Assembly (NCBI GenBank): GCA_965261595.1
Contig: CBDHDG010000007.1
Coordinates: forward strand, 160,001 to 224,000
Direction: 5' to 3'
Length of the DNA stretch: 64,000 bases
Source: a bacterium
GTDB lineage: Bacteria; UBA8248; JACPRG01; G963555815
Position 1 is the stretch's first letter, and each line of letters opens with the position of its first letter. A model generated the notes under the pieces. That model saw only the letters and a list, made by a program, of their open reading frames with translations. It was not told the origin of the DNA and did no database searches. Position numbers and translations under genes: made by a program. Of the stretch, positions 1,791 through 62,531 are shown one piece after another.

Positions 1791-2783
1791 TCAGCCGTAC
1801 TTCTGATTCAGTTGGGGGATGCACTCCGCGGCGAACAGCTTCATCGAGTCCAGGACAGCTTGCTGGCGGATGTTGTGAAAGTGCATCCGGAAGATCAGGT
1901 GATTGACGCCCAGGGCGTCGATGAAGGTCTCAAGCCCCTCGATGCATTTCTCGGGCGGGCCGACGATGAAGCGGTCCTTCATCAGTCCTTCGAACGTGAC
2001 GTTCTTCTCGCCGGTCGAAGTCGTCTTGTGTCCCCAGCGAACATAGTCTTCCATGTACATGTGCCGGAGATGTTCGAGGGCCTCCTCTTCGGCGGCCTTG
2101 TCCTTACAGCAGAAAAGCTCCCGCATGATGGGGAACTCTTTGGAGCGGATCTCCTCGTCGGTCTCGCCGAGGGCGTTCTTGTAAAACCCGTAGGCCGCCT
2201 TCACCTTTTCCAGATCGGCCGTGGGGCCTGGGAACCAGGCGTCCGCCAGCCGGGCCGCGCGGTCGCAGGCCGGCTCCAGCCAGCCGCCGATCCAGAGAGG
2301 GGGGCGGGGCTTCTGGATGGGTTTCGGGAGAAGCCGCGCGTCGTTCACCTGGTAATGCTTCCCCTGAAAATTCACAGTGTCCTCGGCCCAGAGCGCCCGG
2401 ATGATCCGGGTGCTTTCCTCCATCCTCGCCCCGCGCTGCTTGACCGGGACGTTGAACAGATCGAATTCGGCCGCCCGGTAACCCACGCCCAGCCCCAGGA
2501 TGCACCGGCCGTTCGATATCACGTCCAGCATGGTGGCGTCTTCGGCGATGTGGAACGGGTGATGGAACGGGGCGATGAGAACGCTGGTCCCGAGCATGAC
2601 CGTCTTCGTGTGCGGGGCGATCCCCGCGAGGGCGAGCCAGGGAGAGGGATAATATCCCTCCTCCACGCTGTGGTGCTCCTGGAGCCAGAGGGAGTCGTAC
2701 CCCCATTCCTCCGCCTTCACGCATTGCTCGACGGTGTCGTCCCAGCGAACCATCTCCTGGCACGGCGAAAGACCGAATTTCAT
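1791..2783 (-). CDS. LLM-class flavin-dependent oxidoreductase, tandem paralogue of 662-1654
   Basis: Same length (330 aa), colinear and highly similar to the neighbouring LLM protein. Confidence 0.92.
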   Translation of the reverse strand: MKFGLSPCQEMVRWDDTVEQCVKAEEWGYDSLWLQEHHSVEEGYYPSPWLALAGIAPHTKTVMLGTSVLIAPFHHPFHIAEDATMLDVISNGRCILGLGVGYRAAEFDLFNVPVKQRGARMEESTRIIRALWAEDTVNFQGKHYQVNDARLLPKPIQKPRPPLWIGGWLEPACDRAARLADAWFPGPTADLEKVKAAYGFYKNALGETDEEIRSKEFPIMRELFCCKDKAAEEEALEHLRHMYMEDYVRWGHKTTSTGEKNVTFEGLMKDRFIVGPPEKCIEGLETFIDALGVNHLIFRMHFHNIRQQAVLDSMKLFAAECIPQLNQKYG

Positions 2784-3836: not shown

Positions 3837-4146
3837 GCCTCACCTTCCTTCTCTTCGCCGACCCGCGCCTTCTTCACGGAGCAGGCCTCCAAGCCGGCGG
3901 ATTCATCCCAATCTTTTGATCAGCGTCATTTTACGTGAACGGTTCAGGGGGAAGCAACGATGGAGGCGGCGGGCCGTTCAAAACGGGGCCATCGGCAGCC
4001 GCCCGCCGAGCCGCTTCAGGCGTTCGCGGTGCGGCGCCCCCCTCCCCCTCCCCCTCACCCCCCGGCGCGCTTCCATCCCGTCCGGAGGACATTGAGGCCT
4101 CTCCCATGAGCCGGAGGCGGACGGACGCCGAAACCGGACCGGCCGG

Positions 4147-4545
4147 CTATTCTTCCGGATCCAATTCCAGGGACGCGGAATTGATGCAATACCTGAGTCC
4201 CGTCGGCTGGGGACCGTCCGGGAAGATGTGACCCAGGTGGGCGTCGCAGTTGTCGCACATCACCTCCACCCGCCGCATGCCGTAGCTGACGTCTTCCTCC
4301 TCCTTGACGATCTCATCGTTCACGGGCTGCCAAAAGCTCGGCCAGCCGGTGCCCGAATCGAACTTGTGATCGGTGTGAAAGAGCTTCGCCCCGCAGCACA
4401 CACACCGGTACGTCCCCTTGTCCTTGGCGTCCCAATACTTGCCGGAGAAAGCCGGCTCCGTGCCCTTTTCGCGTGTGACGTGATACTGCTCGGGCGTGAG
4501 CTGCGCCTGCCACTCGGCTTCGGTCTTCCGCGTCTTCTCGGCCAT
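4147..4545 (-). CDS. msrB: Peptide-methionine (R)-S-oxide reductase
   Basis: [28 protein letters not shown]. Confidence 0.98.
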
Positions 4546-10069: not shown

Positions 10070-10221
10070 CGGGCGGGCATCCAGCCCGTCTTCGGAAGGC
10101 GGCCAGGATGGCCGCCCTACCTGCACGATAGCGGGCGGCCCTTTCAGGGCCGCCCGCTATCGCTAAAAACTGGCACATTGGCCGGATGCCGCGGCTGGCG
10201 CAGCCAGACGGGTATCCGGCC
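10070..10221. repeat. REP/REPIN-like hairpin cluster
   Basis: GTAG-type REP GTAGGGCGGCCATCCTGGCCGCC on minus strand (10098-10120) with an inverted degenerate partner at 10070-10090; perfect 16-bp-stem hairpin 10126-10162; further hairpin 10180-10221. Confidence 0.6.
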
Positions 10222-11198: not shown

Positions 11199-12953
11199 CT
11201 AAGCCGGGAGGAGTGAGATCCACTTCTTCCGAGACTTGATTGGGGACGCGCTTTCCGCCGTCTCCCAGTAGCGCCGGCTTTCGCGAACCATAAAATCCTT
11301 CGGCAGATTCTGGTTGATCACATCCCACGGGAGCGGCTCATCGTAGCCCCACTTCCGCGTCACATAGAAATCGGGGTCCACCGGAGATTCACGGAGCGCC
11401 GCCCCCCAGTCCCCGCGCAGCCGGTGGACCGTCTCGAGAAGACCGCCCACGCGCCGGTCGCCGCGCGAAAGGAGTGCCTGGATATAGGCCCATTTGGGGA
11501 CCTCGTGATTCATCCGGACATTCGGCTCGGACCGAATGAGGCCCGCGAGCAGCTTCAGCCTGCGCCTGACCTCTTTGAGCGGCGCCATCCCCTCCCACTG
11601 CATGGGCGTGTGGGGTTTGGGGATAAAGGGATTGACGCTGAGCGTCAGCGTCCCGAGGCGTTTCCGGTCGCGTCCGATCTTCAGCATGATTTGCTTGATT
11701 TTCCGGGCCATGTGGGCGATGGCGGCCACGTCCTCATCGGTTTCACCGGGGAGGCCCACGAGGAAGTACAATTTCAGGTTCACGATCCCGCTCCGGAAAA
11801 CCCGCTCGATCTGGTGGTAGATGAGGGCGTCGGAGAGCTCCTTGCGCACGGCCGCGCGCAGGCGCTCGGTCCCGGTCTCGGGGGCCAGCGTGAGGGAGCG
11901 CTCCCCGCTTCCGACCAGGACATCGAGCAGGTCATCGTCGAGGGCGTCGATCCGGAGCGAGGCGGGAGAGACGCGCCCGCCCATCTCTACGATATCCCGG
12001 CAGATGCCGGTGAGCTCGGGGTGGTTGGAAACCATCGTCCCGACCAGTCCGATCTGTTTGCGGTGCTGAAGCCCCACGCGGATGTCGGCCCGAAGAGATT
12101 CCCGGGACCGGTTCCGCAGGGGCCGAAAGGTGAAATCGGCGGCGCAGAACCGGCATCCCCAGCCGCAGCTTCGTCCGATCTCGACGAGGAACAACTTCCC
12201 GAACTCGGTGTCCTCGGTCAAGATCCACGAGAGCGCGGGGGTCTTTTCCAGGTCGCGGACCTTTCGCTTATCGACCCGATCGGGAAACCCCGGCAAAGGC
12301 CGAAGCGCGGCCAGGCTGTTGATCCCATGCCGGCTGTCCGCGGGGGGGGGGGGGGGGGAATCGATTTCGTAGCCGGATGGGACATAGACCCCCGGGACCC
12401 GGGCCAGGTCCGCCAGGACCGTTTCCCGGGCGCGCCCTTTGCCCTCGACGAGGACGGCCATGATCTCCGCCAGGACCTCCTCCGCCTCCCCCACCACGGC
12501 CGCGTCCACGAACGGCGCCAGAGGCTCCGGATTGTACGAGGGGCAAATCCCTCCCATGATGATGATCGGGTGTCGGCCCGTTCGGTCGACCGAGCGCAGG
12601 GGGATTCCGCCCTCGTCCAGCACTTCGAGAATCGCCGGGTAGTCGGTCTCGTAGGGCGAAGAGAAAGCCACCAGGTCAAAACCGCCGAGGGGCGATCCGG
12701 TCTCAAGCGTCCGGACGCCCTTGCCCCGCCCGTCCGGGGAAAACACTCGCTCGCAAACGACCCCGTCCATCTCGTTCAGCATGCGATAGACCTGCTGAAA
12801 ACCCAGATTGGACATGGCCACGTGATACGTATTGGCATAGACGAGGGCGACCCGGTAGCCCGCGCGCGATGGGTCGAAAAGCGGCCCGAAGGGATAAACT
12901 TCCCGGGCGAGGATTTCTCGGGGCGTGAGGGATTTTGATGAAGCCCTGGGCAT
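11199..12953 (-). CDS. Radical SAM protein (TIGR03960/YgiQ-like architecture)
   Basis: CGWGCRFC CxxxCxxC; YHVAMSNLGF; APETG; YFLVGLPGET; FIPKPHTP. Confidence 0.9.
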   Translation of the reverse strand: MPRASSKSLTPREILAREVYPFGPLFDPSRAGYRVALVYANTYHVAMSNLGFQQVYRMLNEMDGVVCERVFSPDGRGKGVRTLETGSPLGGFDLVAFSSPYETDYPAILEVLDEGGIPLRSVDRTGRHPIIIMGGICPSYNPEPLAPFVDAAVVGEAEEVLAEIMAVLVEGKGRARETVLADLARVPGVYVPSGYEIDSPPPPPADSRHGINSLAALRPLPGFPDRVDKRKVRDLEKTPALSWILTEDTEFGKLFLVEIGRSCGWGCRFCAADFTFRPLRNRSRESLRADIRVGLQHRKQIGLVGTMVSNHPELTGICRDIVEMGGRVSPASLRIDALDDDLLDVLVGSGERSLTLAPETGTERLRAAVRKELSDALIYHQIERVFRSGIVNLKLYFLVGLPGETDEDVAAIAHMARKIKQIMLKIGRDRKRLGTLTLSVNPFIPKPHTPMQWEGMAPLKEVRRRLKLLAGLIRSEPNVRMNHEVPKWAYIQALLSRGDRRVGGLLETVHRLRGDWGAALRESPVDPDFYVTRKWGYDEPLPWDVINQNLPKDFMVRESRRYWETAESASPIKSRKKWISLLPA

Positions 12954-14567: not shown

Positions 14568-15335
14568 TTAAACGACTTCCGTCAGCGTTTCCGGCTTTGA
14601 AACCAGAGGCTGAAATTGCTCCCCCGACATTGGACACCAATCCGCGGGCCAGGGCGCCTCCAAGCGGCAAAGCAAGCGCTGCTGGACCGGGCCGGGCTCC
14701 GGATTCACCCTCTCCACGGTAACCCTGACTCCGTTACGATCACGCTCAATCAACTGGTGGATATCCTCAAGGAAATACCGAGGAATCCAACCGACCAGGC
14801 ATCCGGCCTCACTCCGCAAGAGAATGGCTTTCTCGTCAGCGGAATTTTGGAGATCCGCGCAAAGCAAGAGTCGCGTCCCTTTCGTCATACCCGGCACAAA
14901 CGTCTGACTCTCGGAGGGAAGATGGCGCAGCCCGTGTGCAAAAAAATGAATCCGATAACAACTGAACTCATCGGGCTTCGGATGCGGAAAGACCTCCAGC
15001 GAGTCTGTTGTGCGGCGTCCACCGGAACGCGTGAGGATCGCCACAGGGTCGTAAGGAGATTGCGGAAGACCCAACCGCTCGACCATCTCGCCATAATCGG
15101 GTCGGGATTGGCGCGGCACTCGATTGTCGAACAAGGGAAACAGGACCTTGGATTCATAGGCATACTTCAATTCCGGGAAAGAACTCAGCCGATCAAAACC
15201 CGCCTCTTCGTTCGCCTGAAGAACTCCTCTCGTGTATTGAAAGGTGTACGTTTCATCGCTTGAATCCAAACGGCCGATCACAAACCATCCCCGGGTCTTC
15301 ACCCTATCCTGCCAAGCGAGATACAAGCGTCTCAC
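14568..15335 (-). CDS. HipA N-terminal(HipS)-like plus HIRAN-domain protein
   Basis: YTFQY..LFPLFDNRVP N-terminal region; FFAHGLRH..NSADEKAI..VGWIPRY HIRAN-like C-terminal region; ATGA overlap with the upstream kinase gene. Confidence 0.8.
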   Translation of the reverse strand: MRRLYLAWQDRVKTRGWFVIGRLDSSDETYTFQYTRGVLQANEEAGFDRLSSFPELKYAYESKVLFPLFDNRVPRQSRPDYGEMVERLGLPQSPYDPVAILTRSGGRRTTDSLEVFPHPKPDEFSCYRIHFFAHGLRHLPSESQTFVPGMTKGTRLLLCADLQNSADEKAILLRSEAGCLVGWIPRYFLEDIHQLIERDRNGVRVTVERVNPEPGPVQQRLLCRLEAPWPADWCPMSGEQFQPLVSKPETLTEVV

Positions 15336-16264
15336 GGAAGCGCCTCCCGAATTTCTTTCAGTTTCTTCCGTGTATTACGAAGAAGTTCCATGGCAAACTT
15401 CACAGAGACTTCGGAAATCCATCCCGTCGGCATTCTTCCAAAAATTCCTTCGAAGGCGGAGTCAGGCAACCTGATGGCGTTTTCCAGCCAGGGTTGAAAC
15501 GCACCGGGTTGAATTCTGGCGGCCCTTCGCACGAGCTCAATTGGGGAAAGACCATGTTTGTCATTGGAATCCCAGTAAATCGGTGAACGGGGTCTTTCCA
15601 CGTAATTCGGGAGATTGTCTTCTCGCAACATCTCCATTCTCTTCTCGTCTCTGAGTTCTCGGCCCAGCGACGAAGCGTGGTCATACGTGGGGGATAGAGT
15701 GAGCTGACGACCTGATGCTGATGCTTCAACCCTTCTGAGTAGGATACCCCAATTCTCATGGTGCCGGTCGGTGTTCCCAATCAACGCATCAAGTGTTAAA
15801 TAACCGGCAAAAACATCAGTCGCGCTCATTTCAATTGTAGGATGAGACCAATCTATCGGGACAGAGGTCTCTTTCAAGGTTTCCATAATTCTGTCATACG
15901 TATGATCCGACTGATGATATTTCTTCTCTTTCTCATAATCGGTCACAATGATAGGAAGGCGTTCATTTCCATGAACAAGCTCCAACCCGTTTTCCGGATC
16001 CGCAAATGAGAGAGACACCGTTCCAAATTCACCTTCGTAAGTTGCCAATTCGATACGTGCACAAGGAAGGCCCATCAATTCCCCGACTTCGGCCGCAATT
16101 TTCTCCGCCCACGCTTCCCCAGTATCCGGTCTCGGTTTCTTAAAAAGCCACAACTTATCTTCTCGATCGATCCACCAAAATTTCTCTTTTGATCCAAGCG
16201 CCTCGTCGTCATACGACGAGGTAATTTCGATTACGTCAAAAGTCGCTGGTTCTTGGCTTGCCAA
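15332..16264 (-). CDS. HipA-like Ser/Thr kinase
   Basis: LGSKEKFW, LFKK, EKIAAE, GNTDRHHENWG catalytic loop, LSPTYDH; visibly lower GC than flanks. Confidence 0.88.
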   Translation of the reverse strand: MASQEPATFDVIEITSSYDDEALGSKEKFWWIDREDKLWLFKKPRPDTGEAWAEKIAAEVGELMGLPCARIELATYEGEFGTVSLSFADPENGLELVHGNERLPIIVTDYEKEKKYHQSDHTYDRIMETLKETSVPIDWSHPTIEMSATDVFAGYLTLDALIGNTDRHHENWGILLRRVEASASGRQLTLSPTYDHASSLGRELRDEKRMEMLREDNLPNYVERPRSPIYWDSNDKHGLSPIELVRRAARIQPGAFQPWLENAIRLPDSAFEGIFGRMPTGWISEVSVKFAMELLRNTRKKLKEIREALP

Positions 16265-47927: not shown

Positions 47928-48791
47928 TCAGGGCCGAGTTTTCCCAATCTGATACATGATGTTTTCGTCTTGCCACTCGATATATCGGGGGTCGTTGAAA
48001 TCACGCGAGATGTTTTCGCGGAAGGTCTCGATGGCCGCTTCCAACGCCTTTTCGCCATAAAGCGAGAAGGTTGAGTAATGCTTGTTGCGCACCTGTCCCA
48101 ACAGGCGGTTCAAATCGGAGGTCCGGGAATAAAAAAATCTTTCGGCGGCCATCAGATGAAGGCCGTCCGCTTCTTCGATGCGTCTTTCCATGTTGGTGGA
48201 TTCGAGCAGCCGTGTCTCTATTTTCAGGAAATCCGGGAAATGCCGCCCCCAGATCGACCGCGCGTTCTGAGCGGGGGTCCGGGTGTAGATGAAGATCCGG
48301 CCGTTCTCCTTGATGGCGCGGCCGACCTTGGCAATAAACCTCGCGACGTCGAAATGATGCACCGCGTTGAAGGAAAATACACCGTCCAGGGATTCATCCT
48401 CGAGCCTCAGATCCTCGGCCCGACTTAAGAGGGTTTCGTAATTGGAGATTCCATGATCCTTCAGGTTTTGAGAGAGCTCGGCAAGCATCCCCGAATTTAC
48501 ATCGACGCACGTGAGCGTCAGATTGGGGATGTTTTGAAACAGTAAAAAGGTGTATCGGCCGGTGCCGCAGCCGATTTCCATCCCCTTCGTGGCGTCGCGA
48601 TCCCCCAGTCCGTTCCGGATGCGGCGGATGGGCTCCTCGTCCGTTGTCCGCACATCACGATACACTTTGGCGATCTTCGTGAAATGGTCGTTCATTTCCC
48701 TTTGCGTTTTCAAAGAAGCGTCGATTTTCAATGATCTCCCAACATGCCCCCCCGTCAAACGAACCCCTTCTACCGCTGGGGATCCGACCAA
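47928..48791 (-). CDS. Class I SAM-dependent methyltransferase
   Basis: EIGCGTGRY, NAVHHF; lower GC; start may be 48695. Confidence 0.88.
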   Translation of the reverse strand: MVGSPAVEGVRLTGGHVGRSLKIDASLKTQREMNDHFTKIAKVYRDVRTTDEEPIRRIRNGLGDRDATKGMEIGCGTGRYTFLLFQNIPNLTLTCVDVNSGMLAELSQNLKDHGISNYETLLSRAEDLRLEDESLDGVFSFNAVHHFDVARFIAKVGRAIKENGRIFIYTRTPAQNARSIWGRHFPDFLKIETRLLESTNMERRIEEADGLHLMAAERFFYSRTSDLNRLLGQVRNKHYSTFSLYGEKALEAAIETFRENISRDFNDPRYIEWQDENIMYQIGKTRP

Positions 48792-48880
48792 GCGAGCGTC
48801 CGTTAGAAAAGTAGAATGGTCGCATTCTCGGGAGTCCGACCAAGCGAGCGCCCGTTAGAAAAGTAGAATGGTCGCATTCT
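48783..48880. repeat. 46-bp direct tandem repeat (52-bp period) containing palindrome AGAATG-N4-CATTCT
   Basis: Copies at 48783-48828 and 48835-48880 differ at one position. Confidence 0.9.
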
Positions 48881-49060
48881 ATGGAATTTCAGGAGAATGT
48901 CAATCCGGGTTTCACCGGATTGGAGTTGACCACATTTCAAGGACACCTGATACTCTGGGAGACGAAAGCGGGGGGCCGCCACGTCCAAGCCGCATCCACG
49001 GCATCCGACAGAGCCGAACCCCAATCGTTTGGCACGGATTTTTCCCCATCCTCGACAACC

Positions 49061-53144: not shown

Positions 53145-54239
53145 TCAATGGGGCTTCGATCGGGGATTCCCACCCATCAGGTTGAACTGCTCCAACAGCC
53201 GACGCTGCTTTCGGGTCAACCGGGTGGGTGTTTCCACATGAACCCGGATGATCTGATCCCCCCTGGCGCCGGGGCTCGTTCCGGGCAGACCCTTGCCTTG
53301 AAGGCGGAACGTGCTTCCGGACTGGGTCCCCGCCGGAATTTTCAGGGGGATCGAACCGGCAAGCGTGGGGACGTCGATCTCCGCGCCCAGGGCCGCGTCT
53401 GAGATGCTCACGGTCACCGAGGAATGGATGTCCGAACCCTCGCGCCGGAATGTCTCATGGGGAATCACCCCGATGGTCAAAAGGAGGTCCTCCGGCCTTC
53501 CGCCCCGAATCCCCGCATGCCCTTCCCGATTCACCTTGAGCTTCATCCCGTCCTCGGCGCCGGCGGGGATCCGGATGTTCAGCACCCTTTCCTTTTGAAT
53601 CCTTCCGGTTCCGCCGCACCCCCCACAGGCATCCACGATGATTTCGCCCGTCCCGCCGCAAGGACGACACGGGGTCTTTATGACGAGCAAACCGTGTTGC
53701 CACTGAGCATATCCCGATCCGCCGCAGACCACGCAGGCCTGCGGCCGGCTCCGGGCGCCGGTCCCTTTTCCCCGGCATGGATCGCAAGCCTCCAGCCGGC
53801 CGACCTGGATCGGGAGCGTGGTCCCCACAGCCACTTCTTCGAGCGTAATGGTCAGGTGATACTTCAGATCCCTCCCGATTTCGGCATGCGGATCGGATTC
53901 CGGCGGCTTCCCTTGCATGAGGTCGGAGAAAAGGTCCTTGAAAACGCCTGACAGCTCGCCGCCGGGTCCGAACGGCGAGGGGCCGGCGGTATGCGTCGGA
54001 GACGGCCGGAAACCCCGGCGGTCGAAGTCATCCCGTTTCCTCGGGTTCCGGAGAATCTCGTAGGCGCCGCTGATCATTTTAAACTTTTCCGCCGAGTGCC
54101 GGTCTCCGGGATTGCGATCCGGATGACACTCCATGGCCAGGCGGCGGTAGGCCCGCTTGATTTCTTCCTCGTCCGCGGTGGGAAGGATTCCCAGGACCTG
54201 ATAAGGGTTGTCGGAAGCCATGTGAGGGGGTGACCGCAA
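53145..54239 (-). CDS. dnaJ: Chaperone DnaJ
   Basis: J-domain HPD, four CxxCxGxG repeats. Confidence 0.95.
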
Positions 54240-54251
54240 CCACCGGTCTTT

Positions 54252-54866
54252 TTAATCTTCTTCCTCGGGGAGGGCCTTCGCCACGACCACCCGGCTCGGC
54301 CGGATCACCCGGTCTCCGATGGCGTAACCCTTTTGAATTTCCTCGATCACCGTGTCCGGAGGATGGTCTTCCGTCTCGACCGTCATGACGGCCTCATGAA
54401 GCTTGGGATCGAACGGCTGAGCCAGGGCTTCGAGCCGCTGAAGATCATGGCGGCCGAGACTCTCCACCAGGGACTTCAGGACCAGATCGATGCCTTCCTT
54501 CAGAGCGGGACCGTTTTCATTTTCCATCGCGATGGATTCTCCGGCACGCTCCAGACCATCAATCACCGGCAACAGGTCCTTGATCACATGCTCGTTTGCG
54601 CGTTCCCGGATTTGCCGCTGCTCACGAGCGGTCCGCTTTCGGAAATTGTCGAATTCAGCGCGAAGTCGCAAGTGCTGATCCCGGGCTTCCTGGAGATCCC
54701 GCTTCAGCTCCTCGATGGGCGTCGTCTCCCGCGGCGGGGGAGCCTCGGCATCGGGTTCAAGCGCCGGTGCTTCTTCGTCGCCCGGAGTCGCGGGCGAATC
54801 TCCATCATCTGATTTTTCAATGGAGACGGGGACTTCCCGTCCATCATCCTCGTGATCCTGGCTCAC
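54252..54866 (-). CDS. grpE: Nucleotide exchange factor GrpE
   Basis: AEFDNFRKR, FDPKLHEAV, QKGY..RVIRPSRV. Confidence 0.97.
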   Translation of the reverse strand: MSQDHEDDGREVPVSIEKSDDGDSPATPGDEEAPALEPDAEAPPPRETTPIEELKRDLQEARDQHLRLRAEFDNFRKRTAREQRQIRERANEHVIKDLLPVIDGLERAGESIAMENENGPALKEGIDLVLKSLVESLGRHDLQRLEALAQPFDPKLHEAVMTVETEDHPPDTVIEEIQKGYAIGDRVIRPSRVVVAKALPEEED

Positions 54867-55048
54867 GGCCTTCCTTTCGAATTCTTGGTCATCCCGGGCT
54901 TTTTCAATTCACAAACCCGCCCGCCATTCGGCGCGATTTCGAGGCCGTCAAGCCGGAGCCGATTCGCATTCGGTTCATTGCAACCCAAGCCCTTTGGCTT
55001 GATCAGCCGCCGGGGATCGACGACCGACTGAAACAGGAAGGGATGTTG

Positions 55049-56158
55049 CTATGAACTGGATTCCGCCGCGATAAACCGACTGAGCGTAGAAGCCGTCATG
55101 TCCACCAGGGCCATGATGCGCGGGTATCGCATCCGTTTCGGGCCGATGATCGCCAGGGTCCCCAAATTTCTTGAGCCGTCGCTGTAGGTCTTCATGACGA
55201 ACGCGCAATCGTTCATGGCCTCGACTTCGGTCTCCGGCCCGATGCTGACGGAAATCCCCTCCGCCTCCACGAACCGGTCCAGGATCTCAACGAGCTTTTC
55301 CTTCTCCTGGAAGGCTTCGAACAGCATGCGCATTTTCTCGACGTCCGTCTGGAACTCCGGCTGATCGAAGATGTGGTGGGTTCCCCAAATGTAGAATTCG
55401 TCGGTTTCTTCAGGTGATTCCAGAAACGCCTTTTTGCTCAATTTCAGCGATTCACGGTACAGGATATCGAACTCTTTTTTGTGTTCGAGCATCTGAAGAG
55501 AGATCCGCCGGCGAACCTCCTGGAGTGTCAGGTCTTTATACTCTTCGTTCAAATACCGGCTCATCCTATCGAGGAACTCCTGGGAGAGGTCTTCCTCCAT
55601 CTCGATGGACCGGTTTTGGGTCCTCCCATTCTTGGTCACCACGATCACGTGCGCGAGATTCGGCCGGAGCCGGACAAGGCGGATCTGGCTCAAGACCGTC
55701 CTGGAGAGATTTGGAATCAGGACCAGGCTGGCTTGTTGCGTCAACGAAGAGAGCAGCTTGGAGGTCTGCTCCAGTAAACCCTCCAACCCCGAAGACCGCG
55801 TTTCGCCATAACCGATTCGGATCCTTTCCACCTCCATCTCGGAGAGGGCGGGCAATTTTTTGACCTGATTCACATAGAACCGGTATGCCTTGTCGGTGGG
55901 GACGCGTCCGGCGGAGGTGTGGGGTTGACACAGAAATCCCAATTCCGTGAGTTCGGCGAGCTCGTTCCGGATGGTCGCCGAGCTCAGGTTTCTGACATAC
56001 TTTTTAGCGAGCGTCTTGGAGCCGATCGGCTCATTCGTCTCGACGAAGCTGGAGAGCACCCCTTGCAGGATGTCCTGCTGACGAACCGTCAGGTTTGTCG
56101 CGCCGGATAACATTGCGGACCTTGCTCCCGAGAATACTCTCGCCTGGGGAGCGACCAC
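55049..56158 (-). CDS. hrcA: Heat-inducible transcription repressor
   Basis: EPIGSK, SSATIRNE, QPHTSAGRVPT, IIGPKRMRY; start may be 56113. Confidence 0.97.
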   Translation of the reverse strand: MVAPQARVFSGARSAMLSGATNLTVRQQDILQGVLSSFVETNEPIGSKTLAKKYVRNLSSATIRNELAELTELGFLCQPHTSAGRVPTDKAYRFYVNQVKKLPALSEMEVERIRIGYGETRSSGLEGLLEQTSKLLSSLTQQASLVLIPNLSRTVLSQIRLVRLRPNLAHVIVVTKNGRTQNRSIEMEEDLSQEFLDRMSRYLNEEYKDLTLQEVRRRISLQMLEHKKEFDILYRESLKLSKKAFLESPEETDEFYIWGTHHIFDQPEFQTDVEKMRMLFEAFQEKEKLVEILDRFVEAEGISVSIGPETEVEAMNDCAFVMKTYSDGSRNLGTLAIIGPKRMRYPRIMALVDMTASTLSRFIAAESSS

Positions 56159-56400
56159 GCTAAAATTGAGCCGCTATCCCAAAAACTAGCAACCCCGCCC
56201 AAACTTGTCAATCGGAAACCCGCACCGCTTGACAGCCCTTGACCGACCTGAGAGACTTCCGGTGGCAGTTTTACACCTTACATTTCCGATGGTTCTGAAG
56301 GATTAATCCGTGATTATGCCTTTGACGCAGTAAGACACAAGATATAGGTGCGATTTTGAGACACTACATGTTGTGGTTATCCAACAGGAGGGGGTCACTT

Positions 56401-56616
56401 TTAGGGACCCGTGGAACCACATATCCTCCCATTGATGATGGCTGGTGGCCCGACGTAAGAGCCCCGAATTTCGAGTGGGATGCGTTTCTTCGGCGGTTTC
56501 TTATTCCTTATCCCCATCAAGTAGAAACCCGCATAGAAGAGAAGATCAATAACCCTAGAGGCTGCTTCGGAGATGAACCATCCAAAAACGTCAAATCCTT
56601 CATATCTAAATTCCAT
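56401..56616 (-). CDS. Small hypothetical cargo protein
   Basis: ATG GAA start inside hairpin unit 1 with upstream GGAG; no recognised family. Confidence 0.4.
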   Translation of the reverse strand: MEFRYEGFDVFGWFISEAASRVIDLLFYAGFYLMGIRNKKPPKKRIPLEIRGSYVGPPAIINGRICGSTGP

Positions 56617-56685
56617 TGCCTGGGCTCTCCAAGCTGCGGGTTAATGGAACGCCACGGCTGGGGCCGTATACCCCAGCCGTGGCAC

Positions 56686-56973
56686 TTATTCACACGCGAT
56701 GTCCTGTTGCGCCGATGCAATCCTCACTTCAAATTCACCGGCAAACCTGAATATCACCTTCTCAAGTTTGGGACTATTGAGATACCTATGTTGGGGCGGG
56801 TGTTTCCTGACAAAAAATACACGCCTCCGCTTTTTGTTGAATCTTCCTCCAAGTCTCTCTACGGCCAAGTAGTCTCTGTCCTGAAGAACCTGCACCAGCA
56901 GTTTAAGTTTTCTCGGGGAGACATAGGCGGGTCGGCTAAAAGCCTTTTCCTTAAGAAAGCATTTTGCTTCCAT
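56686..56973 (-). CDS. Small hypothetical cargo protein, paralogue of 57067-57417
   Basis: RBS AAGGAGG; shares CF..PAYV..L.DRD..LG..HP..YL.S..FRF.GEF.V..I.C with its neighbour. Confidence 0.75.
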   Translation of the reverse strand: MEAKCFLKEKAFSRPAYVSPRKLKLLVQVLQDRDYLAVERLGGRFNKKRRRVFFVRKHPPQHRYLNSPKLEKVIFRFAGEFEVRIASAQQDIACE

Positions 56974-57066
56974 TGCCCCAGTCCTCCTTCAAGGTTGGGT
57001 GGTGATGGAACCGCAGCGCCAGGGGCGGGATCCCCTGGCGCTGCACTTGTAAATCTTATTTTCCAC

Positions 57067-57417
57067 CTATTTGCACGAGATGAACTCGCACAACGTCTCA
57101 AAAACCTTGAATTCCCCTTCAAAACGGAAAGTCGTAGAGCCAGGGATGCTCTTCAGGTATTGGAATCCTTTTGGATGCTCACTCACCATGAAAATACGCC
57201 ATTTCTCCTTTGCGTTTCGGTATCCAAGTTTATACAAAGCTACCAAATCGCGATCGTCCAACATGCGAAGTATGAGTTTTCTTCGTTCCAAATCCACATA
57301 AGCGGGGCTGTACACCGCACCTTTTCCGATAAAACAGGCCTTGTTGGATTCTCCAGCCATGACGGCGGAAGATGCGATGAGGGCAGTTGTAAGTATGCAA
57401 CCGCCGATAGTACGCAT
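57067..57417 (-). CDS. Small exported hypothetical cargo protein
   Basis: Signal peptide MRTIGGCILTTALIASSAVMA; paralogous to 56686-56973. Confidence 0.75.
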   Translation of the reverse strand: MRTIGGCILTTALIASSAVMAGESNKACFIGKGAVYSPAYVDLERRKLILRMLDDRDLVALYKLGYRNAKEKWRIFMVSEHPKGFQYLKSIPGSTTFRFEGEFKVFETLCEFISCK

Positions 57418-57657
57418 GGGCAGACCCCCAGAAAATCGAGGTTGACACGGGCTTGGGGATTTGCTACAAGGAGGGTCTGTGAGGTCCTCTCTTGTAGCAA
57501 CGCCCCGGGGTTCCCTCGGGGCTTCCACCCTTTGAAGTTCCATATACCACATGTAGTGGGTCGGATTCAATTTTCGAGGGACCACCATATCTTGTGTCTT
57601 ACTGCGTCAAGGGCATAATCACGGATTAATCTGCAAGATTCAAGCCTATTTCACCCC

Positions 57658-58431
57658 ATGCGCGCAAATATCCGACGGAACCGAAAAATGACGCGGAATT
57701 TGTTGTTGGATATCTATGAGCGCCTGCTTCACCACTTCGGGCCGCGCGGATGGTGGCCGGGAGAGACTCCCTTTGAGGTCTGCATCGGGGCCGTTCTGGT
57801 CCAGAACACCTCGTGGACGAACGCCTCCCGGGCCATCGCCAACCTCAAGGCGCGAAAGCTACTCTCCCCGGAGGGATTGCGGCGAATCCCGAAATCCCGG
57901 CTGGCGCACCTCATTCGCCCCGCCAGGTTTTTTAACCTCAAGGCAGACCGCCTCAAGGCGTTCGTCCGATTCCTCTGGGTCGAACACCAAGGAAATTTGA
58001 ATCTGTTGTTCGACATCCCGGCGGAGAAACTCCGGAAAAACCTGCTGGAGCTGAAGGGGATCGGCCCCGAGACGGCCGATTCCATCCTGCTTTATGCGGC
58101 GGAATTTCCGGTCTTTGTCGTTGATGCCTACACCCACCGAATCTTTTCACGCCTCGGCCTCTACCAAGGCCCATCATCGGGCCGAAAGGGGTATGAAGCG
58201 CTTCAAGAGGGGTTTCACCGATTCCTCTCGCGCGACGCTCCTCTCTACAACGAGTACCACGCCCTTCTGGTCGAGCTTGGAAAAGAATATTGCCGTCCAA
58301 GACCCAAATGCGAATCCTGTCCGCTGTCCTCTATCTGCGCCTACCCGAGCGCCGCTCCGGAAGCATCGGTTCCAGCGGGTGTCAAAGGGAGCATCACAGC
58401 CAAATGCGAGGCAAAGGCAGAGAAGATTTGA
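57658..58431 (+). CDS. Endonuclease III-related HhH-GPD protein with 4Fe-4S cluster
   Basis: WWPGETPFEV..QNT, GIGPETAD, VVDAY, CRPRPKCESCPLSSIC. Confidence 0.92.
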   Translation: MRANIRRNRKMTRNLLLDIYERLLHHFGPRGWWPGETPFEVCIGAVLVQNTSWTNASRAIANLKARKLLSPEGLRRIPKSRLAHLIRPARFFNLKADRLKAFVRFLWVEHQGNLNLLFDIPAEKLRKNLLELKGIGPETADSILLYAAEFPVFVVDAYTHRIFSRLGLYQGPSSGRKGYEALQEGFHRFLSRDAPLYNEYHALLVELGKEYCRPRPKCESCPLSSICAYPSAAPEASVPAGVKGSITAKCEAKAEKI

Positions 58432-58448
58432 GATTTCCCGCGGGCGAG

Positions 58449-58955
58449 ATGCGCTTTGTGGCGGACATCACCGTAGGAAAGACCGCCAAGTGGCTCCGGA
58501 TCTTGGGATTCGACGCACTCTTCATGCGCAGTCTGGATATGGAATTTCTGGCCGCCCGCCTCGCGGAGGGACGCATCCTCGTCACGCGGGACAGCCGCCT
58601 CGCCAACAGGCCCGGCATGTCGAATACGATCCTCCTGGAGGCGAACGACCCCGCCGGACAGGTTGCGGATATCTTTGTCCGCCTGGGGCTGGCGAAGACG
58701 GTCATGGAAGCGGTTGGGCGGATGGAGTCCAAAGAGGAGGTGACCCGGTGGCCGAAACCCCTGTCCCGATGTATTCGATGCAACGCGCCCCTGAAGGAGG
58801 TTCCCCGGTCGGATGTCGTACTGGAAGTGCCTGATTTCACATGGGCGACCCAACCACGATTTCACCGGTGCCCCCTCTGCCGCCGCGTCTATTGGCCGGG
58901 AACACACCGCGAGAGGATCCTTTCAGCAATCGATGCCCTGAATCTGGGAAACTAA
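58449..58955 (+). CDS. Mut7-C RNase (PIN-fold, DUF82) domain protein
   Basis: RFVAD..GKTAKWLRILGFD, ILVTRD, RCIRCN, CPLCRRVYWPGTH. Confidence 0.92.
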   Translation: MRFVADITVGKTAKWLRILGFDALFMRSLDMEFLAARLAEGRILVTRDSRLANRPGMSNTILLEANDPAGQVADIFVRLGLAKTVMEAVGRMESKEEVTRWPKPLSRCIRCNAPLKEVPRSDVVLEVPDFTWATQPRFHRCPLCRRVYWPGTHRERILSAIDALNLGN

Positions 58956-59329
58956 GCAGACTTTCCGCACTGGCCCCCGGTTTCCGAATGCGGATATGCG
59001 GGCCGTTTGACGCTTATCCTCCGCCGTTTTCCCAAAATCGGACTCGCCTCCCCCCTCCGGCCCCCCATTTACAACGAATGACAGGTGAAAATACGGGTTG
59101 GATTTGAACCCCGACCTCCCAGTCATTCGAACCTTGCCCGCTCTTGGGGCAAACCTGCTCTCAGTCTTGGAGCTTTTGGGACAAATATGAGACGATTTTC
59201 GTCGAAATTGTAAAGAACGTTATCTGAGCTGAATTGGCCTCCATTGACGAATTCTATTGATCCGCTAATAATCGGTTTAAATTCAAATGGTTGTGGAAAT
59301 CTGAAAAATAATAAATTTTTTGAACCTTT

Positions 59330-59345
59330 TGGTACAATATTTGCT
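59330..59345 (+). promoter_or_regulatory. Sigma54-type -24/-12 promoter
   Basis: TGGTAC-N5-TTGCT (GG-N10-GC) in an AT-rich region upstream of ORF 59404. Confidence 0.7.
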
Positions 59346-59403
59346 CTAATCCTATAACAACGCGAAATTCAAATCTCCCAAATTTCTTCTGGAGGGAAGA
59401 TTC

Positions 59404-59637
59404 ATGTTGGCTACGGAGCAGAAAACGGAGCAGAAAACGGAAATCACCGCTGTCACGCTGGCGGACGCGGGAAAGGCATTCAGAGAAGAGGCGGAAGAGA
59501 TCGCCGAATCGCCCCAGGAAGCTGAAATCCTGGCAACCGCCGCGCTCCTGAACTATCTGGCCACCGAAAGACCCAAACTGCTTGAGCGGCCGCTGGAAAA
59601 TATCCGAAAGGGCGCCATCGTTTCAAGCCTTTCTTAA
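59404..59637 (+). CDS. Small hypothetical protein (77 aa)
   Basis: RBS GGAGG; helical composition; 12-bp tandem repeat encoding TEQK-TEQK. Confidence 0.7.
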   Translation: MLATEQKTEQKTEITAVTLADAGKAFREEAEEIAESPQEAEILATAALLNYLATERPKLLERPLENIRKGAIVSSLS

Positions 59638-59748
59638 GATTTCTCAGATCGGAATCCAAGACCACCGGCGTCTCCACCCGGGCGAATTTCCCTCCCTCCC
59701 TCTCGCCCGCTGGAGACGCCGGAAATAATTATCCCTTTCCATTTCAAT

Positions 59749-60656
59749 CGTATTTATATACTTGACACAGACGACCACAACATGTAGGTCGCGCCCGCGT
59801 CTCGGCTGACCACAAGATGTAGGGGCATGCTTCCATCGATCCGTTTCCAGAAGATGCGCTCTATCAGATCGTTCGGTTTCATTGATCGATAAAATCCACG
59901 CGCTGAATATCGCCCTTTTCATTGAAGTGTAAAAACAACTTTTTGTTTATATGCAATGTGTTGTTGGTTTTTCCTTTTCTTCCGTACTTAAACTCAAATT
60001 CAAGACCGCCCTCAAAAACGCCGCTTCTCTTCTGCTCTATAGGATATGTAGTGATCGTCAAACCACCCCATCCCTCCTGCAGGGATGGTATAGCTATTCT
60101 TGGCATATGGCTCTTTTGTCGGGTACAACTTATCAAATGTTGAGACGACATTTACAACCTCAAATGTCACCGGGAAAAGAGCTTTGTTGTTAAACGTAGC
60201 ACCAATCCGCAGTGATTTTACTACACCAGCTTTGTCGATTATTCTGTCAGTTCTCACACTATGAAAGTTAAGCATATCCGCAACTCTATTACGATACCGC
60301 CATTCGCTGAATCGCAACAATCCCATAGAGGAAACTGAAAACAGAATGACCGCTCCAACATATAGGTTGAACAACTGGATATGTTGCGCAAAACCGATCA
60401 TGACGCCAGCCGCCGTGACCGCAATGGGCCATATCCAGCTCCGCAGTAATTCACCCGCCAAAAAGAGGGCGACTTTGCGAAGCCAATTGAGCATGATTCA
60501 GTCATTGTATGATCCCTCTTCGGTTGAGTCAAGCGCATAATTGCGAATCCAACTCCACCATGACTTGAGTTGAAGCATGCCCCTACATCTTGTGGTCAGC
60601 CGAGACGCGGGGACGATCTACATGTTGTGGTCGTCTGCGTCAAGTACATAATTCCG
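59749..60656. mobile_element. Non-autonomous cassette 2 (IS1595-family-like mobile insertion cassette), 908 bp
   Basis: 85-bp terminal IRs (78/85 identical; 59749-59833 and 60572-60656); 8-bp direct repeat ATTTCAAT at 59741-59748 and 60657-60664; AT-rich cargo; no transposase. Confidence 0.88.
59879..60494 (-). pseudogene. Membrane-anchored hypothetical cargo protein with probable frameshift near 60045
   Basis: Two N-terminal TM segments; GWFDDHYI appears to continue in another frame as PIEQKRSGVFEGGLEFEFKYG to the stop at 59879. Confidence 0.6.
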
Positions 60657-60816
60657 ATTTCAATCCCAATCTCCCTCAACCCCCGGTATTTATCTCTGGA
60701 ATGCCCCGCACGCCTCTGCTACACTCTTTTTCTTGTTGGTCAGTGATCGACGGGCGCCGGGGTTTGCTCATGCCCCAATCTCCAGGCTCTGAAAACCCTC
60801 GGGGCGGCTTCAGCCA

Positions 60817-61494
60817 ATGGCCGGCATTTTGATCACCTTTGAGGGCATTGAAGGCTCGGGGAAAACAACCCAGGCGTCGCTGCTCGCCGATCGATTGCGG
60901 GAACAGGGACTTTCGGTTTTCCGCACCCGCGAGCCCGGGGGGACGCATTTGGGAGAGGGAATCCGGCGGCTCGTTCTCGATCCCGGACAGGAAGAGATTG
61001 ATCCCGTCGCCGAGTTGTTCCTCATGGAAGCCGCCCGCGCCCAACATGTGGCCGCGAAAATTCGCCCGGCGCTGGAAGCCGGAAAGGTGGTTCTGTGTGA
61101 CCGGTTCACCGATTCCACGCTGGTGTACCAGGGCCTCGCCCGAGGCCTGGAATGGAAGACGATCGAGGACGTGAACCTCCTGGCGGCGAAAGGCATTCGG
61201 CCACACACAACCATTGTCCTGGATCTGGACATCTCCGCCGGCCTGGCGCGGACGCGGACGCGGGCGGACGGTGCGGTTCAAGCCGATGGCTCTATTGATA
61301 CCGGCGAAACAAACCGATTCGATCTGGAAGACCGGAAATTTCACGAGATCATCCGGTCGGGGTTCCTGCGGTTGGCCAAAGAAGATCCCGGCCGGGTGAA
61401 AGTGGTCCGCGCCGCCGGTTCCGCGGAGGAAGTCCATGAAGAAGTCTGGAGGGCATTGGAGAAGACCCTCGAATCGGCGGCGCCATGCGGTTAG
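60817..61494 (+). CDS. tmk: Thymidylate kinase
   Basis: FEGIEGSGKTT, TREPGG, CDRFTDST..YQG. Confidence 0.98.
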   Translation: MAGILITFEGIEGSGKTTQASLLADRLREQGLSVFRTREPGGTHLGEGIRRLVLDPGQEEIDPVAELFLMEAARAQHVAAKIRPALEAGKVVLCDRFTDSTLVYQGLARGLEWKTIEDVNLLAAKGIRPHTTIVLDLDISAGLARTRTRADGAVQADGSIDTGETNRFDLEDRKFHEIIRSGFLRLAKEDPGRVKVVRAAGSAEEVHEEVWRALEKTLESAAPCG

Positions 61495-62531
61495 CCGAGA
61501 TCAAGGGGCAGGACCGGGCGGTGTCCGCCTTGCGGCGGGATTTCTCAACCGGCCGGATGGCGCCCTCTTACCTGTTTGTCGGACCTGAGGGCGTAGGCAA
61601 AACCACCACGGCCATCGCCTTCGCGGGTCTCCTCCTTTGCAAGGAGGGCGCTCGGGGCGGTGAATCCGAAGACGCCTGCGGCGTATGCGACGCATGCCGG
61701 AAGGTGCGGGCCGAGAGCCATCCCGACCTGATGGTCGTCCGAAGAGACGGCCGATTCATCAAGGTCGGAGAGTATGAGAAGGATCGGAAGCGGGGCGAGC
61801 CGCCTCAGATTCGGCAACTCATCGCCGCGGCGCAGCGCAAACCCTACGAGGGGCCGGTGAAGGTCCTCGTGGTGGATGAGGCCCACCGGATGAACGCCTC
61901 GGCGGCCAACGCGCTGCTGAAAACGCTGGAGGAGCCGCCGCCCGGCACGGTCATCATTCTGACCGCCGCAATGCTTGGGGCGCTGCCGCAAACGGTGGTT
62001 TCCCGATGCCGGGTGATCCGCTTCCGGAAGCTGGAGCGCTCCTGGCTGGCATCGGAGGTCGAGCGGCTTCGAGGCCGATCGGCCGAAGAGGCCCGTTTGG
62101 TGGCAAGTTTCGCCGATGGCCGCATGGACCACGCGCTTGAAGCCGACCCGGAAGAGGTCTTCGCGAGAAGAACCAAGGCCCTTGACCTCCTGGACGCGGC
62201 GCTGGAGGGCCGGACGGCCGCGGCGCTGAAAAACGTTTCCGGCGTAGGCCGGCCCGCCGAAGAGGCGGAAGCGCTCCTCGACGTGTTCATGTCCATCGTT
62301 CGCGACGTTCGCGCGGTCCGGGGAGGAGCGGAACCCGAATTTCTGGTGCACGAGGACTTGGCCAATAAGCTTGCCCGTTGCGGGTCAGCGTACACAAATA
62401 AAGCCCTGGAGGATTTGTTCGACCGCGCACGGTCGTTGCGCGCGGACATTCGCTTAAAAAACGCCAACCCGCAGCTTGGGTGGGAGTCCCTTCTGCTTAC
62501 TCCCAAGAAGCCAGCGGCGGTCGGAGGATAG
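61485..62531 (+). CDS. holB: DNA polymerase III delta-prime subunit
   Basis: GPEGVGK, CGVCDAC, HPD, ANALLKTLEEPP, SRC; follows tmk. Confidence 0.95.
   Translation: MRLAEIKGQDRAVSALRRDFSTGRMAPSYLFVGPEGVGKTTTAIAFAGLLLCKEGARGGESEDACGVCDACRKVRAESHPDLMVVRRDGRFIKVGEYEKDRKRGEPPQIRQLIAAAQRKPYEGPVKVLVVDEAHRMNASAANALLKTLEEPPPGTVIILTAAMLGALPQTVVSRCRVIRFRKLERSWLASEVERLRGRSAEEARLVASFADGRMDHALEADPEEVFARRTKALDLLDAALEGRTAAALKNVSGVGRPAEEAEALLDVFMSIVRDVRAVRGGAEPEFLVHEDLANKLARCGSAYTNKALEDLFDRARSLRADIRLKNANPQLGWESLLLTPKKPAAVGG

Follow-up and report, generated by a model that had tools for sequence, protein, structure and literature searches.

Genes of one operon can be expressed at different levels through intercistronic stem-loops in the mRNA, as with the repetitive extragenic palindromic (REP) elements between malE and malF and the hairpins of the puf operon. 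Displaced "orphan" modules occur at polymorphic toxin loci of the contact-dependent inhibition (CDI) cdiA-CT/cdiI type and of the Rhs type. Here we analyze a 64,000-nt stretch of bacterial DNA (GenBank assembly GCA_965261595.1, contig CBDHDG010000007.1, positions 160,001 to 224,000; hereafter the window) in which an island, cassette 1, carries three small cargo genes, g1, g2, and g3, together with three double-hairpin units. Read along the minus strand, the first half of the island runs from the right inverted-repeat arm through unit 3 (hairpin B3, then A3) and a 43-nt leader to g3. The second half continues with 22 nt, hairpins B2 and A2 of unit 2, g2, 2 nt, hairpins B1 and A1 of unit 1, g1, and the left arm.

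Three further kinds of element are relevant to this locus. The attC sites of integrons are single imperfect hairpins with extrahelical bases, an unpaired spacer in the center, and a variable terminal structure, and their arrays adjoin an integron integrase gene and attI. Their terminal cores have the form 5'-RYYYAAC ... GTTRRRY-3', with a conserved AAC at the crossover, as given in the excerpted text of PMC5027507. Mobile insertion cassettes (MICs) hold passenger genes between inverted repeats of the insertion sequence (IS) type and contain no transposase, according to the portion of PMC4337579 that defines them. The NrdR box is a 16-bp site with conserved C4, A6, A8, T9, T11, and G13 (excerpt of PMC13584703), and its copies stand upstream of ribonucleotide reductase genes with spacers of 14 to 17 or 24 to 27 bp (excerpt of PMC12051234).

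Base pairing is kept between units 1 and 2

Two hairpins, A and B, make up each unit; in units 1 and 2, B has a perfect stem. All three double hairpins had been proposed in a sequence-only reading of the window, and all three are present, as are the flanking motifs ATGGAAC and ACTTRT that it described. Relative to dinucleotide shuffles, the plus-strand fold z-score is -7.2 for unit 1, -5.5 for unit 2, and -4.8 for unit 3, and the corresponding minus-strand values are -6.3, -5.3, and -4.4; in every case, on both strands, 0 of 200 shuffles fold as well. The window contains four distinct perfect hairpins with a stem of at least 10 bp, two of which are B1 and B2. The other two lie at 10126 and at the groEL terminator (45501). 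The hairpin at 10126 to 10162 is the longest perfect hairpin of the window (17-bp stem, 3-nt loop) and is followed by CTAAAAAC, not by a T-run.

When the 64-kb window was searched with a covariance model of unit 1 only, unit 2 scored 43 bits (E = 4e-12), and the sole further match was the reverse strand of hairpin B1 itself. Units 1 and 2 are thus homologous, two divergent versions of an intergenic element some 80 nt long. A model of units 1 and 2 together, run with filters off over 54000 to 62000, scores unit 3 highest after these two, at 11 bits and E ~0.19. It has an architecture like that of the other two, and homology is not demonstrable at this score. The proposal of three covarying units thus holds for units 1 and 2 and is not confirmed for unit 3, and the covariation once seen between TTCCATT and the TTGCTAC of unit 3 in hairpin A compares sequences that may be unrelated. 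At 59666 to 59722, just left of a second island (cassette 2, described below), a loop of roughly 33 nt is closed by a separate 12-bp stem (CCGGCGTCTCCA / TGGAGACGCCGG). This structure follows a 77-amino-acid (aa) open reading frame (ORF) at 59404 to 59637 and matches the unit model weakly (9 bits, E 0.56).

Units 1 and 2 were aligned under the guidance of the model, and so with a fit to the plus-strand structure, as MAFFT had placed the gap in hairpin B wrongly. In this alignment 57 of 58 cells are paired and one is unpaired, and 6 of the 29 pairs are altered on both sides. Hairpin B retains its 13-bp stem through nine invariant pairs and four double changes, with none broken, exactly the four compensatory changes that had been read from the sequence. 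Hairpin A has eight invariant pairs, five one-sided changes, two double changes, and the single unpaired cell. Each of the five one-sided changes produces a plus-strand G-U pair and, on the minus strand, an A-C mismatch, and seven plus-strand G-U cells occur in hairpin A of the two units; the non-Watson-Crick pairs are indeed plus-strand G-U pairs, as the sequence-only reading held. When the 3' partners are slid by one to three columns as a control, 30 to 48% of cells are paired, with zero or one double change. These counts, from two sequences, indicate that the pairing of units 1 and 2 is preserved by matched mutations. The accompanying genes are 42% identical, and the earlier proposal that structure rather than sequence is under selection is borne out for these two units.

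The two hairpins differ in strand preference. Hairpin A is more stable on the plus than on the minus strand (-16.6 versus -12.4 kcal/mol in unit 1, -18.6 versus -14.3 kcal/mol in unit 2), and its 3' arm, read on the plus strand, contains one or two bulges of a single base. The stability of hairpin B on the minus strand equals or slightly exceeds that on the plus strand. Taken whole, units 1 and 2 differ between strands by just 0.5 to 1.0 kcal/mol, and unit 3 folds at -44.1 kcal/mol on the plus strand and -38.0 kcal/mol on the minus strand. Folding with DNA parameters gives no strand preference.

The hairpins are not plain terminators: hairpin B has no U-run after it on either strand, in contrast to the T9 tail at this genome's groEL terminator. 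A search of Rfam 15 over 55500 to 61500 on both strands, at E up to 1, returned no match in cassette 1; the sequence-only reading had likewise recognized no known family for the units. The sole match in that interval is a chance long noncoding RNA hit outside the island (55876 to 55959, 16.8 bits against a gathering score of 40). No curated RNA or protein family was found to cover any part of cassette 1.

Cargo genes and coding strand

All three cargo genes lie in a single minus-strand frame, and the exact antisense frame is open across cassette 1. From base composition alone, 420 open codons have a chance probability of ~5e-9. The cargo genes contain 0 of 282 codons of the types TTA, CTA, and TCA, which are stop codons on the opposite strand. 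We take the minus strand as the coding strand and the long plus-strand ORF as its shadow because g2 and g3 are paralogs in the minus frame (42% identity, E = 9e-20), because the plus-frame translations of the same two segments do not align to each other, and because the codon-position pattern is that of the minus frame. Over 78 aligned codons, the g2/g3 differences at minus-strand codon positions 1, 2, and 3 number 41, 26, and 55, and identical residues number 33 in the minus frame versus 14 in the antisense frame. The dissimilarity of the paralogous segments and the codon-position pattern together rule out the 420-aa ORF as a real gene. We also considered g1 as a third, decayed paralog and rejected it: BLASTP gives no alignment to g2 or g3, and hhalign assigns a probability of 1% over 15 columns.

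The predicted pI is 10.3 for g2 and 9.3 for g3. No Pfam family matches the cargo ORFs or the shadow ORF, and neither PADLOC nor PHROGs has a family matching the cargo ORFs. A word-index protein search with g3 gave 0 matches, as did a g2-plus-g3 profile against 1.84 billion cluster representatives. The best ESM Atlas scores, 0.85 for g3 and 0.84 for g1, are under the meaningful level. An AlphaFold2 model of g3, built from a two-row alignment, reached a mean predicted local distance difference test (pLDDT) score of 42.9, too poor for a fold search.

Relatives carry one gene module where the window carries two

A protein search identified two 297-aa "proteins" from other assemblies, P0010 and P0011, that are antisense shadows of the same island, and module boundaries were obtained by comparing the plus-frame translation of the window with them. 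P0010 differs from the window by one substitution and by the loss of exactly 357 nt (56602 to 56958), which comprise g2 and unit 1; the order of its island is g3 - unit 2 - g1. Over the left arm, g1, unit 1, and g2, P0011 is 100% identical to the window. In place of unit 2 and g3 it then has 39 residues that are absent from the window, and it rejoins at 57439, before unit 3, giving the order g2 - unit 1 - g1. That both relatives are 297 aa long implies that the two whole modules are equal in length.

Antisense decoding of the 39 codons specific to P0011 permits an M/V start followed by L-L-[IV]-x-[IV]-L-[FL]-[IV]-[FL]-[MV]. The permitted start lies 27 residues ahead of a conserved Cys-Phe, a spacing as in g3. 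In the P0011 island, g2 is probably full-length and equipped with a signal peptide of its own. This comparison shows two diverged versions of the module, of about 480 nt, set between flanks that are nearly identical. The alignments further indicate that both versions are stacked head to tail in the window and that the downstream one (g2) is decapitated.

The units are repeated because the gene module is repeated. A single module occupies the P0010 and P0011 islands against two in the window, and to this extent the cassette logic of the sequence-only reading stands. That reading had placed one unit ahead of each gene; a better description is one unit behind each of the two paralogous genes, plus a separate structure in the leader. 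It had also named tandem duplication of a gene with its terminator as the finding that would undo it. Module repetition does explain the repeat, but the hairpins lack a U-tail and their pairing has been actively maintained.

The left end of the g3-bearing module (M3), 56959, is constant and abuts g1 in P0010 and g2 in the window. The distance from this end to the hairpin A base is 9 nt, and the same distance applies to the boundary of the g2-bearing module (M2) at 56602, while the right-hand module boundary is 22 nt, not 9 nt, from hairpin A3. The partners at the window junction share a 6-nt microhomology, GCATTT, which fits illegitimate recombination. The junction pattern resembles a single crossover within the right flank, which is identical, combined with one microhomology join, presumably a case of homology-facilitated illegitimate recombination. 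One genome may hold both the P0010 and the P0011 forms.

Possible function of the hairpins

The interpretation that we favor, tentatively and at a probability of roughly 0.4, is that the hairpins are cis-acting RNA structures in a minus-strand transcript, which would span the cargo genes as one operon. Read on the minus strand, each module begins with a leader and the gene of a small protein with a probable signal peptide (g3 or g2); the GC-rich hairpin B comes next, and the imperfect hairpin A then brings the following ORF its Shine-Dalgarno (SD) sequence, ATG, and first five codons. Hairpin B, just past the upstream stop codon, could act as a tail-less barrier to decay or read-through, and hairpin A could set the translation level of the next ORF, so that the two together would fix the expression ratio of the secreted protein and g1. 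Unit 3 is a separate double hairpin in the leader of the putative operon. We count the positions of the hairpins in favor of this interpretation: hairpin B follows the stop codon by 2 nt (g2) or 22 nt (g3), and the SD and ATG of the following ORF fall within hairpin A, an arrangement already noted in the sequence-only reading and seen here for g1 and g2. Further, B1 and B2 make up half of the perfect hairpins counted in 64 kb, and no dispersed repeat was seen in the window. The coding strand, the homology and kept pairing of units 1 and 2, and the modules of the relatives speak for it as well.

Several results weigh against a cis-acting role. Exceptional occlusion of the start sites was looked for and not found: from -15 to +3 on the minus strand the mean unpaired probability is 0.34 for g1 and 0.44 for g2, against a mean of 0.51 (standard deviation 0.13) for 39 host starts that are themselves longest-ORF guesses, and 5 of these 39 are as closed as g1 or more so, and 11 of 39 as closed as g2 or more so. 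The minimum-energy fold of a 60-nt window around the g2 start on the minus strand omits hairpin A altogether. The plus-strand form of hairpin A is the more stable by some 4 kcal/mol, and all five one-sided changes pair only on that strand, in an alignment that was itself fitted to the plus-strand structure. Neither a sigma-70-type promoter nor a terminator-like site was detected on either strand between 56100 and 57750. The statistics of covariation are thin, as there are only two homologous units and hence two sequences, and the shuffle control is weak, with 10 of 500 shuffles reaching the observed values.

The main rival is that plus-strand antisense RNAs, whose A and B hairpins would be complementary to the g1 and g2 start regions, silence or destabilize the mRNA; transcription would enter from the left arm, and the RNAs would act like a type I antitoxin or other cis-antisense RNAs. 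We consider this unlikely, and it ranks as the main rival because the wobble pairs favor the plus strand. The seven G-U cells and the one-sided changes described above agree with it, as do the advantage of 4.2 to 4.3 kcal/mol for hairpin A in units 1 and 2, the difference between the two strands of unit 3, and a plus-strand z-score that is slightly better in all three units. A type I toxin-antitoxin system consists of a small toxic membrane peptide and an antisense RNA overlapping it, and g1 is small, with one hydrophobic segment. Yet the interval contains no promoter-like site on either strand from which an antisense RNA could start, and the plus-strand sequences after hairpin B (ACUUAUUC and ACUUGUAA) have no U-run comparable to the T9 of the groEL terminator. 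Hairpin B is no less stable on the minus strand, whole units 1 and 2 differ little between strands, and the pair counts come from the plus-strand-fitted alignment.

The sequence-only reading had raised a different alternative, in which the units are attC-like single-strand DNA recombination sites and modules enter or leave at a fixed point beside hairpin A. The fixed module end leaves this a small probability: the left end of M3 is the same next to g1 and next to g2, both M3 and M2 end 9 nt from the hairpin A base, and the gene-plus-unit module is present or absent among near-identical relatives. The units also lie at the 3' end of each ORF in the same orientation, hairpin A has single-base bulges on one arm, and an excess of G:T on one strand is a property of attC as well (excerpt of PMC5027507). 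However, the RYYYAAC...GTTRRRY cores are missing. On the plus strand hairpin A begins with TTCCATT and ends with AATGGAAC; on the minus strand it begins with GTTCCAT, where CCA stands in place of RRR, and the sole AAC, within ATGGAAC, falls at the 3' terminus of the plus-strand hairpin, at the wrong end and in the wrong polarity. No match to a recombinase, integrase, transposase, or HUH nuclease family was found among the window ORFs scanned (the scan left out 54 of the 142 ORFs of at least 140 aa, all 54 overlapping assigned genes), and neither intI nor attI was found in the window among the recombinase families and ORFs covered. The GCATTT microhomology points instead to homology-facilitated illegitimate recombination, the right-hand boundary breaks the 9-nt rule, DNA-parameter folding shows no strand preference, and only two sites are homologous. 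By these sequence features, the units are not integron-type recombination sites, and site-specific recombination of the attC kind is not supported.

Similarly, we assign a low probability to the view that the hairpins are functionless relics, left when a gene was duplicated or stacked along with its downstream stem-loop, and that chance, or a bias acting on DNA that regenerates perfect palindromes, has preserved the palindromes. Module repetition accounts fully for the repetition of the units, the cargo genes have no homologues in the word-index and profile searches, and the broken gene in cassette 2 suggests that islands may be decaying. But the flanking genes have diverged down to 42% protein identity while hairpin B has kept 13 of 13 pairs through four double changes, and without a U-tail it is not a simple terminator copy. 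Finally, hairpin B could be the palindromic operator of a dimeric DNA-binding protein, with the symmetric changes between B1 and B2 reflecting altered specificity, which we regard as very improbable. In its favor, the 13-nt arms form perfect palindromes, each of the four differences is symmetric, and g2 and g3 are very basic. Against an operator, 13-bp GC-rich arms with a 6- to 7-nt spacer are unusually long, no DNA-binding domain was found in the cargo ORFs with Pfam, PADLOC, or PHROGs, the signal-peptide-like N terminus of g3 makes DNA binding unlikely, and hairpin A, which is not a perfect palindrome, retains its pairing too.

Island boundaries, arms, and cassette 2

The features of the locus are collected in Table 1. 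Cassette 1 was delimited by its inverted repeats and by GC content, about 49% against 57 to 65% in the flanks. Its neighbors are hrcA (55049 to 56158, minus strand) and a gene of the endonuclease III family (57658 to 58431, plus strand), both assigned with Pfam. Inward of the 45-nt arms, a weaker similarity between the arms extends for about 80 nt.

Table 1. Positions of the double hairpins, genes, modules, and arms in window coordinates
Feature	Coordinates	Strand	Description
Cassette 1 island	56301..57631		1331 nt; inverted-repeat pair I2 plus GC profile
Left inverted-repeat arm	56301..56345	+	45 nt, 98% complementary to right arm
Right inverted-repeat arm	57587..57631	-	45 nt, 98% complementary to left arm
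Left arm, box 1	56335..56350		16 nt, partly palindromic, ACACAAGATATAGGTG; fits C4 A6 A8 T9 T11 G13
Left arm, box 2	56361..56376		16 nt; 10-nt spacer to box 1
Right arm, box 2	57544..57559		16 nt; 22-nt spacer to box 1
Right arm, box 1	57582..57597		16 nt
Arm boxes, both cassettes	56335-56376, 57544-57597, 59775-59825, 60580-60630
g1	56401..56616	-	71 aa; one hydrophobic segment (residues 22-36), basic tail
g2	56686..56973	-	95 aa; g3 paralog without the N-terminal hydrophobic segment
g3	57067..57417	-	116 aa; small, basic, hydrophobic N terminus (residues 7-21), probable signal peptide
Antisense shadow ORF	56356..57618	+	420 aa; spans cassette 1 in the exact antisense frame of g1-g3
Unit 1, hairpin A	56611..56649		Imperfect; contains SD (GGAGAG) and ATG of g1
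Unit 1, hairpin B	56651..56683		Perfect 13-bp GC-rich stem, 2 nt downstream of g2 stop codon
Unit 2, hairpin A	56968..57010		Contains SD (AAGGAGG) and ATG of g2
Unit 2, hairpin B	57013..57044		Perfect 13-bp stem, 22 nt downstream of g3 stop codon
Unit 3	57461..57522		Hairpin A3 57461-57500 and hairpin B3 57502-57522; leader between right arm and g3
Module M3	56959..57438	-	~480 nt: leader, g3, B2, A2, ATG plus 4 codons
Module M2	56602..56964	-	5'-truncated: g2 without leader or signal peptide, B1, A1, ATG plus 4 codons of g1
Cassette 2	59741..60664		Low-GC island 2 kb from cassette 1; 93-nt inverted repeats, 90% complementary

All four arms of cassettes 1 and 2 can be aligned with one another. 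They have in common a 26-nt motif that matches four times, against 0.00 matches expected, and nowhere else in the window. Each arm carries two copies of a 16-nt, partly palindromic box, giving eight boxes over the four arms. No target-site duplication is present at the island ends, where direct repeats of at most 3 to 4 nt appear only with shifted boundaries. No tRNA or tmRNA gene that could serve as an integration site was found within the window, and the DNA of the cassette 1 island has no match among plasmids or phages. TTGACR in the arms was considered as a -35 element and is unsupported, the promoter scan having found 0 sites.

The boxes resemble NrdR sites. All eight fit the six conserved positions, with five to seven of the eight bases between C4 and G13 being A or T, and sites fitting the six positions number 14 in the window against 7.6 +/- 2.9 in shuffles, with 8 of the 14 in the arms. 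Unlike the NrdR operators described in the excerpt of PMC12051234, the arm boxes have spacers of 10, 22, 19, and 19 nt, and no ribonucleotide reductase (nrd) gene is among the window ORFs scanned. A scan of 596 Gb of genomes for the arm motif returned a single locus (L001), at 4001 to 4029 in the "Candidatus Poribacteria" metagenome-assembled genome OZ242351.1. There, the match overlaps a box fitting six of six positions, 5 nt upstream of nrdR (4035 to 4511; TIGR00244, 193 bits), and the locus has neither an island nor a matching inverted repeat. A tandem NrdR pair in L001 was considered and dropped, since the second box fits five of six positions and is 42 nt away. NrdR binding at the arm boxes is a lead only; the boxes may bind another protein.

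Cassette 2 carries as cargo a membrane-protein gene (60494 to 59879, minus strand) in frameshifted form: where relatives have an intact gene of 204 aa, the frameshift splits this copy into ORFs of 160 and 90 aa. Nine relatives of the gene have 56 to 97% identity (P0001, 97%; P0002, 82%), and P0001 has no match among plasmids. No description of such islands was met in the literature on NrdR boxes, attC sites, and MICs, none of it gathered by a search aimed at the island type.

Other features of the window

Two tandem 52-nt repeats (92% identical) occupy 48778 to 48881, between a methyltransferase gene and an RNase Z-like gene. At 661 to 2715, a tandem duplication with a period of 1129 nt and 78 to 81% identity carries two luciferase-like monooxygenase genes (662 to 1654 and 1791 to 2783, minus strand). 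A run of 17 G at 12342 to 12364, between a radical SAM gene and its neighbor, is a possible site of slippage or assembly error. Adjacent minus-strand ORFs at 14568 to 16264 encode a HIRAN domain and a HipA-like C-terminal kinase domain and may form a toxin-antitoxin-like pair.

Significance

If the hairpins are cis-regulatory, they would add one further lineage-specific operon device, with no wider consequence. A broader proposal, which we think quite unlikely, is that both islands belong to an undescribed family of non-autonomous inverted-repeat cassettes whose modules are swapped and stacked at a double hairpin that doubles as a portable translation-start region. Cassettes of this kind would use a structure-defined junction of their own, distinct from attC, and the arm boxes would bind an unknown recombinase or a host regulator. 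Should the module boundaries beside hairpin A prove fixed across many genomes, small secreted-protein genes could be swapped and stacked with neither an integron nor a visible transposase, and in such a scheme the incoming module would supply the start signals for the gene that it displaces. Public protein sets carry the shadow ORF (P0010 and P0011) instead of the real small genes, which makes such islands invisible to protein-based searches.

Comparison with known systems

Like intercistronic stem-loops, the units place a stable, GC-rich hairpin with no U-tail after the upstream stop codon in a same-strand string of genes, and the second hairpin spans the next start site. Unlike REP-type stem-loops, they occur in only two copies in the 64 kb, both in cassette 1. 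The dispersed copies that mark REP elements and bacterial interspersed mosaic elements (BIMEs) are not seen within the window, where the model matches only units 1 and 2. The wobble pairs are a second difference from intercistronic stem-loops, as they favor the opposite (plus) strand.

The units share with attC, as the excerpt of PMC5027507 portrays it, a structured and sequence-variable site at the 3' end of small promoterless ORFs in one orientation, compensatory change that keeps the pairing, and an excess of G:T on one strand. Also as with attC, the adjoining gene is present or absent in relatives. In addition to lacking the conserved cores, the units differ from attC in being double rather than single hairpins, in the microhomology at the junction, and in having only two homologous sites.

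The gene modules resemble the orphan modules of toxin loci in that a newer module lies upstream of an older, diverged one that has lost its 5' part, and in that the flanks are nearly identical between variants while the center has diverged (42% identity). Unlike at CDI and Rhs loci, there is no evidence of toxicity for g2 or g3 and no large carrier gene, and the upstream module gives the truncated ORF its start codon and first five codons.

The two low-GC islands, of 1.33 and 0.92 kb, are bounded by inverted repeats of 45 to 93 nt and have related ends with differing cargo, as MICs do. Like MICs, they enclose passenger genes in terminal inverted repeats and carry no transposase within. They depart from MICs in that they have no target-site duplication and no known cognate IS, and in that their arms carry two 16-nt palindromic boxes at unequal spacing. 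Of the known kinds, intercistronic operon hairpins come nearest to the units, and mobile insertion cassettes come nearest to the islands.

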